Source: Escherichia coli (lineage in GTDB: Bacteria > Pseudomonadota > Gammaproteobacteria > Enterobacterales > Enterobacteriaceae). Taken from it: a stretch of DNA of 64,000 nucleotides. Below are positions 35,813 to 39,678 of the stretch, piece by piece; position 1 is the first letter of the stretch; every line of letters begins with the position of its first letter. A model generated the notes under the pieces. That model ran no database searches. It was not told where the DNA came from and worked only from the letters and a program-made list of their open reading frames with translations. A program made the translations under genes and the position numbers. The stretch lies in NCBI RefSeq assembly GCF_050920415.1, contig NZ_CP169309.1; one strand, written 5' to 3'.

Positions 35813-36571
35813 ATGCATTACCAGCCAAAACAAGATTTACTCAATGATCGCATTATCCTGGTGACGGGAGCCAGCAATGGTATTGGTCGTGAAGCCGCGA
35901 TGACGTATGCACGCTATGGTGCGACAGTGATTCTGTTGGGCCGTAATGAAGAAAAATTACGTCAGGTAGCCAGCCACATAAACGAAGAAACTGGGCGTCA
36001 GCCACAGTGGTTTATTCTCGATTTGCTGACCTGCACGTCCGAAGATTGCCAACAACTGGCACAGCGCATTGCCGTTAATTATCCGCGTCTGGATGGTGTT
36101 TTGCATAATGCCGGATTGCTCGGCGATGTTTGCCCAATGAGCGAGCAAAACCCGCAGGTCTGGCAGGACGTCATGCAGGTCAACGTTAATGCCACCTTTA
36201 TGCTCACCCAGGCACTGCTTCCTTTATTACTCAAATCGGACGCCGGTTCACTGGTCTTTACTTCATCAAGCGTTGGACGTCAGGGGCGTGCAAACTGGGG
36301 CGCTTATGCAGCGTCGAAATTTGCCACCGAAGGGATGATGCAGGTACTGGCCGATGAATATCAGCAGCGCCTGCGCGTCAACTGCATTAACCCAGGTGGT
36401 ACGCGCACCGCAATGCGCGCAAGCGCCTTCCCGACCGAAGATCCACAGAAACTTAAAACACCCGCTGATATCATGCCGCTCTACCTCTGGCTGATGGGCG
36501 ATGACAGCCGCCGTAAAACCGGCATGACCTTTGACGCCCAACCGGGCCGTAAACCAGGAATATCCCAATGA
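35813..36571 (+). CDS. yciK: short-chain dehydrogenase/reductase
   Basis: 252 aa; TGASNGIGRE Rossmann motif. Confidence 0.9.
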   Translation: MHYQPKQDLLNDRIILVTGASNGIGREAAMTYARYGATVILLGRNEEKLRQVASHINEETGRQPQWFILDLLTCTSEDCQQLAQRIAVNYPRLDGVLHNAGLLGDVCPMSEQNPQVWQDVMQVNVNATFMLTQALLPLLLKSDAGSLVFTSSSVGRQGRANWGAYAASKFATEGMMQVLADEYQQRLRVNCINPGGTRTAMRASAFPTEDPQKLKTPADIMPLYLWLMGDDSRRKTGMTFDAQPGRKPGISQ

Positions 36572-37158
36572 GTGATGAACGCTACCAACAGCGTCAGCAG
36601 CGTGTAAAAGATAAAGTGGATGCCCGTGTGGCCCAGGCCCAGGATGAACGCGGTATTATCATCGTCTTTACCGGCAATGGAAAAGGCAAAACCACCGCGG
36701 CATTTGGTACAGCAGCTCGCGCAGTTGGTCACGGAAAAAAAGTGGGCGTCGTGCAGTTTATTAAAGGCACCTGGCCTAATGGCGAACGAAAACTGCTGGA
36801 GCCACACGGCGTTGAGTTTCAAGTGATGGCAACGGGCTTTACCTGGGATACGCAAAACCGCGAATCTGATACCGCAGCCTGCCGTGAAGTCTGGCAACAT
36901 GCCAAACGAATGCTGGCAGATGCTTCACTGGATATGGTTTTGCTCGATGAGCTGACGTATATGGTGGCGTATGACTATTTACCACTGGATGAAGTGGTGC
37001 AGGCGTTAAATGAACGTCCACATCAACAGACGGTGATTATCACGGGTCGTGGTTGTCATCGGGATATTCTTGAACTGGCGGATACGGTAAGTGAATTACG
37101 CCCTGTCAAACATGCGTTTGATGCCGGTGTTAAGGCGCAAATCGGGATTGATTATTAA
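36568..37158 (+). CDS. btuR: cob(I)yrinic acid a,c-diamide / corrinoid adenosyltransferase
   Basis: 196 aa; P-loop GNGKGKTTAAFG; start overlaps the yciK stop by 4 nt. Confidence 0.93.
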   Translation: MSDERYQQRQQRVKDKVDARVAQAQDERGIIIVFTGNGKGKTTAAFGTAARAVGHGKKVGVVQFIKGTWPNGERKLLEPHGVEFQVMATGFTWDTQNRESDTAACREVWQHAKRMLADASLDMVLLDELTYMVAYDYLPLDEVVQALNERPHQQTVIITGRGCHRDILELADTVSELRPVKHAFDAGVKAQIGIDY

Positions 37159-37163
37159 GGGAA

Positions 37164-37197
37164 AGCACCTCAAAAGATCGCCTCTTGAGGTGCTTTA
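37164..37197. terminator. hairpin downstream of btuR (also downstream of the 102-aa minus-strand ORF)
   Basis: agcacctcaa...ttgaggtgct inverted repeat followed by tttaat. Confidence 0.55.
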
Positions 37198-37210
37198 ATC
37201 ATAATTATAT

Positions 37211-37519
37211 TCAAGCGGCAATAGCAAAACTCAGAATCCGTTTAATCTCATTCAAATGTCCCGGATATGCTTCATGATTCTCAGCGTCAACATCTTCAAT
37301 AAATAATATCAGTTCAGTAATTAACGCATTGGCATCTTCATAACTGATTCCGCTTAACTCTGGCGAAGTTTCAGTACCGTAGTTAATCGTCAGATTGTTC
37401 ATCACCGTGAGGATAAGGATAAAATATTTATGACAAACCTTGCAAGTGGTTTTGTTGCCCAGAGTATTATACAGCATATCAAGTAATGCCAGTATTCTAC
37501 GGTTTTGTACATCGTTCAT
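37211..37519 (-). CDS. hypothetical 102-aa protein, second gene of an AT-rich two-gene module; function unknown
   Basis: Uninterrupted ORF in ~35% GC DNA; strong SD (taGGAGGggc) 7 nt upstream of ATG; starts 12 nt after the upstream lipoprotein stop; single CxxC (CKVCH), acidic C-terminal half. Confidence 0.6.
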   Translation of the reverse strand: MNDVQNRRILALLDMLYNTLGNKTTCKVCHKYFILILTVMNNLTINYGTETSPELSGISYEDANALITELILFIEDVDAENHEAYPGHLNEIKRILSFAIAA

Positions 37520-37531
37520 AAAAAGCCCCTC

Positions 37532-38533
37532 CTATAACATTATTCCGCTGGCAATAAGTAATTTCGCCAGCCCCTCAGACGCCTTTAACCCACTAATGAC
37601 CTGTGCGCGTAATATTTCATTTAATCTGTTTTGTTCAGCTGCCGTGCGTGTTTTATTAGTGTATAAACCTTTTAGATAATCACCCTTATCTATAAAGGCA
37701 TTTAAAGCTTCAATCGCGGGCATTGCAGCAGCCGATGCCTGTAGTCTGGTTTCATTCACATTGATTACTGAACTTAGAAACTCCTTCCTGTTTTTCAGAG
37801 TGTTAAACTCTGTATTCTTAGAGTTTTTAGATACCGCATTATAATAAAGCATATTATTATGTACATTCGCAAAGGTATAATTTTCAATCTTATCGCCTTT
37901 TGTATAAATATCATTACGCAAAACAGTCATGTTTTTTATAAGTCTTACCCAATTTTTATCCGCCGTTTTACCTATTTTCCCAGCATTGACCTTTATTATA
38001 TATAACTCGTTGAAATAACTTACTAAATCTTTAACTGCCGCTGCCGATTCAGCTAAATCTTTGCTATGTGAAACATCAAGTAGTGTTTGCGCGTTGTTTG
38101 CGTGATCCAGAGCCTGTTTAAGTAATGTCACTTGCTGACTTTCTGTAGTTTTTATGTCTTCAGTCAAGAGCTCTACATAAGCACTCATGCTATTAATGAC
38201 TTCCATTGAAGCCAGTAGTTTCTCTTTTTCGAATGGGACTAATTGTACTTTATCTGTTTTTTCTTCAGGGGGCCTGCATAATTTTCCACCCTGACCATCG
38301 TTCGCAACATCAATGGTATAATCAGGTCGCAATGCACAATCCGGATTAGTCGCATAAAAATTAACAAGGAAGTTTTCACGAGAAGCATAGTATTGTTTAA
38401 AGAAACTTGCATTCGCCGCAACCGCCTTGTTACCCGCAGTAATAACAGTTTCAGCTTGCTCATTTTTCAATGCTTCAGTTGCACAACCTGAAAGCATTAA
38501 CAGCGATAGAAATAATCCACTATATCTAATCAT
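37532..38533 (-). CDS. hypothetical 333-aa lipoprotein (predicted outer-membrane-targeted), first gene of the AT-rich module
   Basis: N-terminus MIRYSGLFLSLLMLSGC-ATEA (signal peptide plus lipobox LSGC, Ala at +2); SD agaGGTGG upstream; 1 kb ORF in AT-rich DNA where stop codons are frequent. Confidence 0.7.
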   Translation of the reverse strand: MIRYSGLFLSLLMLSGCATEALKNEQAETVITAGNKAVAANASFFKQYYASRENFLVNFYATNPDCALRPDYTIDVANDGQGGKLCRPPEEKTDKVQLVPFEKEKLLASMEVINSMSAYVELLTEDIKTTESQQVTLLKQALDHANNAQTLLDVSHSKDLAESAAAVKDLVSYFNELYIIKVNAGKIGKTADKNWVRLIKNMTVLRNDIYTKGDKIENYTFANVHNNMLYYNAVSKNSKNTEFNTLKNRKEFLSSVINVNETRLQASAAAMPAIEALNAFIDKGDYLKGLYTNKTRTAAEQNRLNEILRAQVISGLKASEGLAKLLIASGIML

Positions 38534-38654
38534 AACCCACCTCTTGACGTTGAGTTTATCTCAGATAATTAAATAGTAATGTGGCTATTCCCTGGCATTA
38601 TTCATAAGCAAGTATGAAATTAAATTAAAATACTGCGACTATTTATCATGCTTC

Positions 38655-38690
38655 AAATGAAGAAAAGGCCCCGCAGGGCCTTTATTTAAT
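38655..38690 (-). terminator. rho-independent terminator of rluB
   Basis: aaaggccc-cgca-gggccttt hairpin 20 nt after the rluB stop, followed on the minus strand by ttttcttcattt. Confidence 0.7.
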
Positions 38691-38702
38691 ACTTAACTTA
38701 AA

Positions 38703-39578
38703 TTAACCGTTATTATTACGTCCACCAGAACGACGACCGCCGCTGACCTGGCTGTGACGTTTCACCGCACGACGAATTTGATTCGCCTTCATACGACGAC
38801 GGTCTTTTTCTACAGCAACTTTAGAGCTGGTTTCTGGCGGTAGTTCCACCAGCTCACGCAGATAGTTAGTCTGGGCAAGATCCAGCTCAGTCCAGCCACC
38901 GCGTGGCAGACCTTTCGGCAGTGGGATATCACCGTAACGCACGCGGATCAGACGGCTCACCTGCACACCAACAGCTTCCCAAAGACGACGAACTTCACGG
39001 TTACGGCCTTCGGTCAGAGTAACATTGTACCACTGGTTGATCCCTTCGCCGCCGCTGAACTTAATGGTTTTAAAGGCTGCCGGACCATCTTCCAGCTGCA
39101 CGCCACGACTCAAATCACGCAGTTTCGCGTCGTCAACCTGACCAAATACACGCACGGCATATTCACGTTCAACTTCACGGCTTGGATGCATTAGACGGTT
39201 TGCCAGTTCACCGTCGGTGGTAAACAGCAGGAGACCGCAGGTGTTAACGTCCAGACGACCTACGGCAATCCAGCGTGCACCGCGCAGTTTTGGCAGACGG
39301 TCAAATACCGTTGGACGCCCTTCCGGATCGTTACGGGTACACAACTCACCTTCCGGTTTGTAATAGGCCAGAACGCGACAAATTTGTTCAGCGGACTCAC
39401 GTACCGAAATCAGGTGACCATCGATACGGATTTTCAATCCAGGGGTAATTTCAACACGATCGCCGAGTTTAGCAATTTTGCCATCAACACTCACACGACC
39501 GGCTTCAATAATAGATTCGATTTCACGGCGAGAACCGTGGCCGGCACGCGCCAGCACTTTCTGTAGCTTTTCGCTCAT
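38703..39578 (-). CDS. rluB: 23S rRNA pseudouridine(2605) synthase
   Basis: 291 aa; S4 domain at the N-terminus, pseudouridine synthase core, basic RG-rich tail. Confidence 0.93.
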
Positions 39579-39678
39579 AGAGCTTCCTTTTGGTGTCGCC
39601 TTCCCAGGCGTCGAACAGGAGAATCAATGGCGCAGTAGAGCGCCATTTTAAGGCCGCGTAGTATACAGAGTTAATCAC

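Follow-up and report, generated by a model that had tools for sequence, protein, structure and literature searches.

An AT-rich two-gene cassette with deeply diverged alleles encodes a predicted outer-membrane lipoprotein between cobO and rluB of Escherichia coli

Introduction

Several envelope proteins encoded by AT-rich accessory genes of prophages and plasmids are lipid-anchored, among them Cor (phi80/N15), Llp (T5), TraT (with TraS, F) and Bor (lambda), and in F the traS and traT genes form a two-gene unit which encodes a lipoprotein and a small protein. Closer in size is DUF3829 (PF12889; YiiG in E. coli), whose members are lipoproteins of ~330–350 amino acids (aa) with an all-helical periplasmic body. 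Here we describe a locus which resembles both: a lipoprotein gene of similar length and a small partner gene, which together fill an AT-rich cassette between the chromosomal genes cobO and rluB of E. coli (RefSeq assembly GCF_050920415.1, contig NZ_CP169309.1). The locus was analysed within a stretch of 64,000 nucleotides (nt) of this contig, which we refer to as the window, and all coordinates are those of the window. An earlier note, which was made from the letters alone, had described the lipoprotein gene; it had missed the coupling to a partner gene, the nature of the locus as a cassette and the extreme divergence between its alleles.

Results

In E. coli the cassette is a presence/absence polymorphism with deeply diverged alleles. 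The lipoprotein gene was found in 1234 of 5426 complete E. coli genomes (23%) and is missing from the remaining 77%; where present, it falls into at least three allele classes. The ST131-type class is the commonest (779 genomes; the query was the blood isolate MS14385), the class to which the window and strain SMS-3-5 belong has about 424 genomes, seven of them with at least 99% nucleotide identity to the window, and a third class, represented by strain elppa4, has about 30. Between classes the lipoproteins share 65–68% identity, whilst RluB, YciK and YciO are 99–100% and CobO 96–100% identical. A hypervariable central segment of the gene (about residues 69–296) defines the classes and has 43–87% nucleotide identity to other E. 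coli alleles; outside it, the first ~65–70 codons, the upstream region and rluB share 95–100% and cobO 85–100%, and the first 216 nt of the gene are common to all classes. Synonymous divergence reaches saturation in the middle of the gene and is about 0.1 in the first 60 codons. The ST131-type allele is nearer to the allele of E. albertii (85.6%), and its synonymous divergence from the latter is about what the flanks show between these species.

The divergent block has sharp limits, and its extent depends on the pair compared: against the ST131 type it spans 37168–38330 and takes in the partner gene, whilst against elppa4 it spans 37648–38330 only and the partner is 98% identical. These differing extents show that recombination has taken place inside the cassette. 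Between alleles which are otherwise ~90% identical, a further hotspot (38248–38307, residues 76–95) falls to 68% nucleotide identity and lies in a loop bounded by two cysteines. The gene is interrupted by an insertion sequence (IS), IS1, in some strains (NZ_CP170374.1, NZ_AP022044.1), so its loss is tolerated. In the flanks, synonymous divergence between E. coli strains is 0.11–0.26 in cobO and rluB and about 0.05–0.07 in yciK, one gene further out, which suggests that recombination imports or linked old polymorphism reach into the neighbouring genes.

The cassette takes the place of a 32-bp terminator spacer which separates btuR/cobO from rluB in K-12, and its GC content (0.33–0.40) stands against 0.50–0.55 in the flanks. 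The window copy lies between chromosomal cobO (36568–37158) and rluB (38703–39578), has no phage genes nearby, and is flanked by no direct repeats or attachment (att)-like sites. The rluB terminator stands ahead of the cassette, and at its other end a hairpin, which is probably a bidirectional terminator judging by its sequence, separates the partner gene from cobO (Table 1).

The lipoprotein gene is the first gene of a two-gene operon, the second encoding a cytoplasmic-looking protein of ~100 aa, and the arrangement of the sequence strongly supports translational coupling of the two: the TAG stop codon of the lipoprotein gene overlaps the Shine–Dalgarno (SD) sequence GGAGG of the partner gene, and the genes are 12 nt apart. 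In every context examined except one, an open reading frame (ORF) of 96–107 aa follows the lipoprotein gene at 1–45 nt, namely in Citrobacter, E. albertii, Buttiauxella, Raoultella, Pantoea, Yokenella, Methylomonas, a Chlorobi-like genome and metagenomic contigs. The exception is a metagenomic locus (L017, 2171–2980) in which the downstream gene encodes a 269-aa protein with a hydrophobic, probably membrane-spanning C-terminal half, a hint at partners which in some cassettes may work at the inner membrane. The partners form three sequence groups with weak links between them, and share a single Cys near residue 21–26. The partner protein matched no family in Pfam, NCBIfam, PADLOC or PHROGs and no solved structure. 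Its C-K-V-C-H motif is formally a CxxCH haem c motif, and a haem c site was rejected on two grounds, the lack of an export signal and the replacement of CxxCH by C-x4-C in the Buttiauxella relative; a metal or redox site at this position is possible from the residues.

Gene pairs of this kind form a self-contained, AT-rich accessory cassette which is found at different sites in different genera. The earlier note had proposed a survey of the neighbourhoods of homologues, and the survey shows how widely the sites differ. In Escherichia, E. albertii and Citrobacter the cassette sits between rluB and cobO; in Yokenella a low-GC islet with the cassette separates dinB from the nqr operon; in Pantoea it adjoins an hns-like gene. 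The Raoultella copy lies in a mobile island with an integrase, AlpA, an IS, HicB, an AbiC-like gene and PDC-S15, a candidate defence gene, and the Methylomonas copy is near VapBC, Fic, Y1 transposase and MazG_C genes. In Buttiauxella agrestis the cassette is an insert of 34–40% GC in a P2-like prophage of 58% GC, placed exactly between gpS and gpV. In P2 this position is occupied by orf30, which is non-essential, and it counts among the three loci at which horizontally acquired genes are commonly found in P2-like phages (PMC3091744; PMC6823313). The Buttiauxella relative has only the location in common with P2 orf30, which is on the opposite strand, and the window cassette is not in a phage. 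A second apparent insertion in the tail module of the Buttiauxella prophage is a Peptidase_C92 gene on the reverse strand, which stands between tail genes I and H (locus L015, 10026–10613).

That the lipoprotein gene is real had been claimed before and is upheld. At local composition, the probability of 333 stop-free codons is ~1e-11; the ratio of non-synonymous to synonymous substitution rates (dN/dS) between alleles is 0.10–0.28, which places the reading frame under purifying selection; and an SD sequence, GAGGTG, is positioned 5 nt ahead of the ATG. E. coli MFDS1022581 is 100% identical over this stretch and the same ORF is annotated there as a coding sequence. The GC content of the gene is 0.371, that of the window 0.50, and the Asn and Lys contents, which had been described as rich, are only moderately raised (9.0% and 8.4%), as expected in an AT-rich gene. 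A consensus scan found no convincing sigma-70 promoter in the upstream region. No Rfam match reached its threshold; a full-length match to the enterobacterial small RNA STnc130 (38557–38692, plus strand; 24.3 bits against a gathering score of 55, E 0.81) sits in AT-rich DNA between the start of the lipoprotein gene and the rluB terminator and is probably due to chance.

The N-terminal sequence strongly supports a Sec-exported lipoprotein with a lipobox. As a criterion we used an N-terminal basic residue, a hydrophobic core and a lipobox of the form [LVI][ASTVI][GAS]C within the first ~35 residues. The window protein begins MIRYSGLFLSLLMLSGC, followed by ATE, and fits both PROSITE-type (PS51257-type) and G+LPP-type lipobox patterns. 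The lipobox Cys is present in all of 42 aligned homologues, 37 of which have the strict pattern. At position +2 these 37 carry Ala (29), Gly (7) or Thr (1) and the other five Ala or Ser, so that Asp occurs in 0 of 42; the window protein has Ala at +2 and Thr at +3. Lipoproteins of Enterobacteriaceae without Asp at +2 are sorted to the outer membrane by the Lol system, and the lack of Asp here predicts this routing and an outer-membrane location. The earlier note had read the same basic n-region, LSGC lipobox and Ala at +2, and had predicted the same destination; both parts stood, the signal being kept across the family, and no homology to a characterised housekeeping lipoprotein was found. The hydrophobic C-terminus of the protein is likewise conserved across the family, but it has neither the length nor the hydrophobicity of a membrane span (Kyte–Doolittle 19-residue mean 1.1).

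The lipoprotein falls outside every described family. Relatives in a word-indexed search were confined to Escherichia, E. albertii and Citrobacter, down to 50% identity, and none was added when the search was repeated with the 42-sequence profile, whilst a profile search of 1.84 billion representatives returned 59 proteins at E ≤ 0.001, about 30 of which are full-length (324–357 aa) and 16–25% identical to the window lipoprotein. These distant members come from Buttiauxella, Raoultella, Klebsiella, Rahnella, Pantoea, Methylomonas, a Chlorobiaceae metagenome-assembled genome and many metagenomes, and all are named 'hypothetical'. The lipoprotein itself, like its partner, matched nothing in Pfam, NCBIfam, PADLOC or PHROGs; none of the 42 family members matched any Pfam family at E ≤ 0.1; and ten diverse distant members had no significant match in NCBIfam, PHROGs or PADLOC. 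Literature searches by protein accession, flanking gene names or DUF3829 found nothing on the gene. A scan of the genome collection gave the Yokenella locus as its sole match. Two apparent plasmid matches in PLSDB, CP054249.1 (pBone4_2) and NZ_CP134663.1, were rejected as chromosomal sequence filed as plasmid: one of these records is a 33-kb fragment which holds a frameshifted cassette copy and the trp operon, whilst the other is a 4.9-Mb replicon.

Across the 42-sequence alignment, in which homologues are as distant as 16% identity, only the lipobox C17, C66, C86 and Y119 are invariant. That these are the sole invariant residues argues against an enzyme. The two cysteines of the mature part, 20 residues apart and not 23 as had been counted, show the pattern expected of a conserved periplasmic disulfide, which the sequence thus suggests; the equivalent spacing across the family is 18–28 residues. 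An AlphaFold model built on 12 close homologues was unusable (predicted local distance difference test score, pLDDT, 45.6) and was replaced by one built on the 42-sequence alignment (pLDDT 73.7; predicted template-modelling score, pTM, 0.69). In the latter, a long first helix leads to a beta-hairpin at residues 73–97 (strands 73–77 and 93–97), which follows C66 and encloses C86, and then to six to seven helices. Model and alignment together strongly support a mature part which is a non-enzymatic helical bundle with one beta-hairpin loop between the two invariant cysteines. The earlier note had expected an all-helical body with long coiled coils; the model places a hairpin among the helices, and instead of a long coiled coil it gives a compact up-and-down bundle. 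Foldseek against AFDB50 returned the family itself first and then lipoproteins labelled DUF3829 or imelysin-like (template-modelling score, TM, 0.34–0.78), and a sequence-profile search of the PDB gave only coiled-coil noise.

Near the cassette, the gap between rluB and yciO (39579–39678) of the window strain is without yciQ, a gene of 1.9 kb whose product is a DUF2207 membrane protein. The gene lies between yciO and rluB in K-12, MS14385 (an ST131-type carrier), SMS-3-5 and elppa4, and is missing in E. albertii and Citrobacter sp. ANG330. With it, the region has two presence/absence polymorphisms, 1 kb apart.

Table 1. Features of the cassette and their coordinates in the window
Feature	Coordinates	Strand	Basis
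Whole low-GC cassette, 1537 bp	37159..38695		BLAST of K-12 junction; K-12 annotation
Lipoprotein gene, 333-aa prelipoprotein	37532..38533	minus	ORF list; 333 codons + stop; RefSeq WP_000622030.1 'hypothetical protein'
Predicted signal peptide (residues 1–16) and lipobox L14-S15-G16-C17	38483..38533 (lipobox codons 38483–38494)	minus	Pattern matches; Cys invariant in 42 homologues
C66–C86 segment, presumed disulfide-closed loop, most variable spot of the protein	38276..38338	minus	C66/C86 invariant in 42; predicted hairpin
Hypervariable central segment, ~residues 69–296	37648..38330	minus	Nucleotide identity to other E. coli alleles
AT-rich upstream region including SD GAGGTG (38538–38543)	38534..38663	minus	Sequence
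Partner gene, 102-aa acidic protein, no signal peptide, WP_001000709.1	37211..37519	minus	ORF; dN/dS 0.15–0.27
Conserved C26-x2-C29-H30 of partner (C-K-V-C-H), codons 26–30	37435–37446	minus	Formal CxxCH haem c motif
Hairpin, 15-bp stem, 93% complementary, 5-nt loop (inverted repeat I1)	37162..37196		Between cobO stop and partner stop

Discussion

A 1.2-kb segment at 43–87% nucleotide identity inside flanks at 95–100%, combined with a loop that is hypervariable and bounded by Cys residues, is what arms-race molecules typically show, and it agrees with a binding protein that is pitted against a variable agent from outside. An exclusion-type protein was among the possibilities raised in the earlier note and, going by the sequence, it stays the most attractive reading, although unproven: a non-enzymatic envelope module for phage exclusion or defence, to which we give a probability of roughly 0.3. 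The lipoprotein would act by binding or blocking within the outer-membrane/periplasm compartment and may shield the cell from a fast-evolving agent outside it, most likely a phage in the course of infection, in a way that resembles superinfection or surface exclusion. Specificity would be set by the hypervariable Cys-bounded loop and the central helices, whilst the conserved N- and C-terminal helices would serve as a scaffold or as the contact to a conserved host component; the small partner could be a regulator or a helper at the export stage, both of which are guesses. A fuller version, which we hold tentatively, is that of an unrecognised two-component envelope conflict system, in which an outer-membrane lipoprotein recognises or blocks a phage or toxin component through its hypervariable disulfide loop, alongside a small intracellular partner, with ancient allele classes kept in Escherichia by balancing selection and the pair spread as a minimal islet across Proteobacteria.

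A number of results weigh against phage exclusion. No homology found in sequence ties the family to phage resistance. Scans of IMG/VR found no family members, a tblastn search of GenBank phages with the prophage-borne relative gave no match, PHROGs gave no significant match, and the best match among viral structures (BFVD, Foldseek) had a TM of 0.27; the family is therefore rare or absent in phages, and only one relative, that of Buttiauxella, is inside a prophage. PADLOC-DB v2 gave no match for the window pair or the Raoultella pair and none above chance for ten distant members, and the main text of a survey of E. coli defence hotspots does not mention the rluB–cobO site. Overall dN/dS in the lipoprotein is below 1, and the divergence looks like old alleles which were kept or imported, not like demonstrable positive selection. 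The main weaknesses are the absence from phage collections, the lack of a match to any known defence system, and the partner, whose role phage exclusion leaves unexplained: a joint mechanism is hard to draw for two proteins of different compartments, a lipoprotein of the outer membrane and a partner in the cytoplasm, and homology of the partners across groups and distant cassettes is without statistical support (hhalign, enteric versus non-enteric).

Rarity in phage collections would sit better with an orphan immunity protein, directed against a periplasm-acting polymorphic toxin of competitors (a type VI effector, a colicin or similar), the allele classes tracking toxin variants. Periplasmic lipoproteins are a common format of immunity proteins, and the predicted non-enzymatic binding fold, the AT-rich accessory islet, the deep allelic divergence and the hypervariable loop would all suit such a role. 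Yet no toxin, Rhs, contact-dependent inhibition (CDI), type VI secretion system (T6SS) or bacteriocin gene adjoins the cassette in the contexts examined, a conserved small cytoplasmic partner is not expected, and 330 aa is large for an immunity protein; on balance we consider immunity doubtful. Still less probable, and in our view unlikely, is that the lipoprotein is an ordinary envelope accessory protein, a lipoprotein of the DUF3829/imelysin-like structural class which binds a ligand or partner in the periplasm, acts in envelope maintenance, metal handling or sensing and evolves fast from weak constraint. The structural matches, the dN/dS below 1 and the position of the Yokenella and Pantoea cassettes among housekeeping genes all speak for it; it is at odds with the absence of the gene from most E. 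coli and with the missing sequence-level link to DUF3829, helical bundles being promiscuous in such comparisons. Weak constraint alone, moreover, does not account for saturated central synonymous divergence beside nearly identical flanks, nor for sharp recombination breakpoints.

The frequency of the ST131-type allele, which includes a bloodstream isolate, and the resemblance of the hypervariable disulfide loop to an antigenic loop raise a further reading, in which an exposed or surface-shaping lipoprotein aids survival in the host, as Bor, Iss and TraT do in serum resistance, and immune pressure keeps the allele classes. Prophage-borne lipoproteins of this host-interaction kind are known. We regard such a role as decidedly unlikely, as relatives occur in environmental, non-host-associated bacteria (Methylomonas, Chlorobi-like genomes) and in soil and water metagenomes, the protein is related to TraT, Bor and their like neither in sequence nor in fold, surface exposure was predicted by none of the analyses run, and the partner gene is again unexplained. 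The compact, translationally coupled operon, found as an islet between core genes and beside IS elements and toxin–antitoxin genes, could finally be a selfish addiction-type module in which one product is harmful, the other counteracts it and the pair persists without benefit to the host. This we consider very unlikely: only one of the two products has an export signal, which places them in different predicted compartments, neither has a toxin or antitoxin domain (Pfam, NCBIfam, PADLOC), and the tolerated IS1 disruption of the lipoprotein gene is neutral at best for this explanation.

As an accessory envelope lipoprotein module the cassette is no surprise in kind, but it is widespread, cleanly delimited and experimentally tractable in clinically important E. 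coli lineages. If exclusion of phages or toxins is its function, it adds an envelope-level, non-enzymatic mechanism and bears on the host range of phages for therapy in clinical lineages; otherwise, it still offers a clear example of old allelic diversity that persists at one fixed chromosomal position, and a new lipoprotein family is there to be curated.

Comparison with known systems

DUF3829 had been named as a lead in the earlier note. Any resemblance is at the level of fold, in Foldseek matches of a kind that helical bundles give promiscuously, and the lead fails at the level of sequence. The Pfam model did not match the window lipoprotein at E ≤ 10 or any of the 42 family members at E ≤ 0.1; BLASTP between YiiG and the window lipoprotein gave E 2.3; and hhalign of the family profile against YiiG gave a probability of 4% with only the 17-residue lipobox region aligned, the YiiG template being a single sequence and the sensitivity so limited. 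Unlike the window lipoprotein, YiiG has a long Ala/Pro-rich linker and no Cys pair. The Yokenella relative carries the UniProt label DUF3829 yet does not match the PF12889 model, and the best Foldseek match with this label is probably itself a member of the present family. We therefore reject membership of DUF3829 at sequence level; as DUF3829 itself is without known function, membership would explain little.

An imelysin-like identity (Peptidase_M75) was rejected too: there is no Pfam match, no invariant His or Glu for an HxxE metal site, and a fold TM of only 0.36–0.52. The ligand-binding domains of the TorS sensor and of chemoreceptors (four-helix bundles, 4HB) share ~10% identity with the window lipoprotein over ~115 of its 333 residues; they are part of transmembrane receptors, whereas the window protein is predicted to be lipid-anchored, and the similarity to periplasmic four-helix-bundle sensors is generic, because designed helical bundles match equally well.

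The likeness to the lipoproteins of prophage exclusion and conversion is of a different kind. The window lipoprotein has no sequence or fold similarity to Cor, Llp, TraT or Bor and exceeds Cor, Llp and Bor four- to fivefold in size, most cassettes have a non-membrane partner, and the window copy is chromosomal and outside any prophage, unlike the exclusion lipoproteins of prophages and plasmids. What the cassette has in common with them, beyond a lipid-anchored envelope protein from an AT-rich accessory gene, is a Buttiauxella relative in the moron slot of a P2-like prophage and allelic variation of the specificity type.

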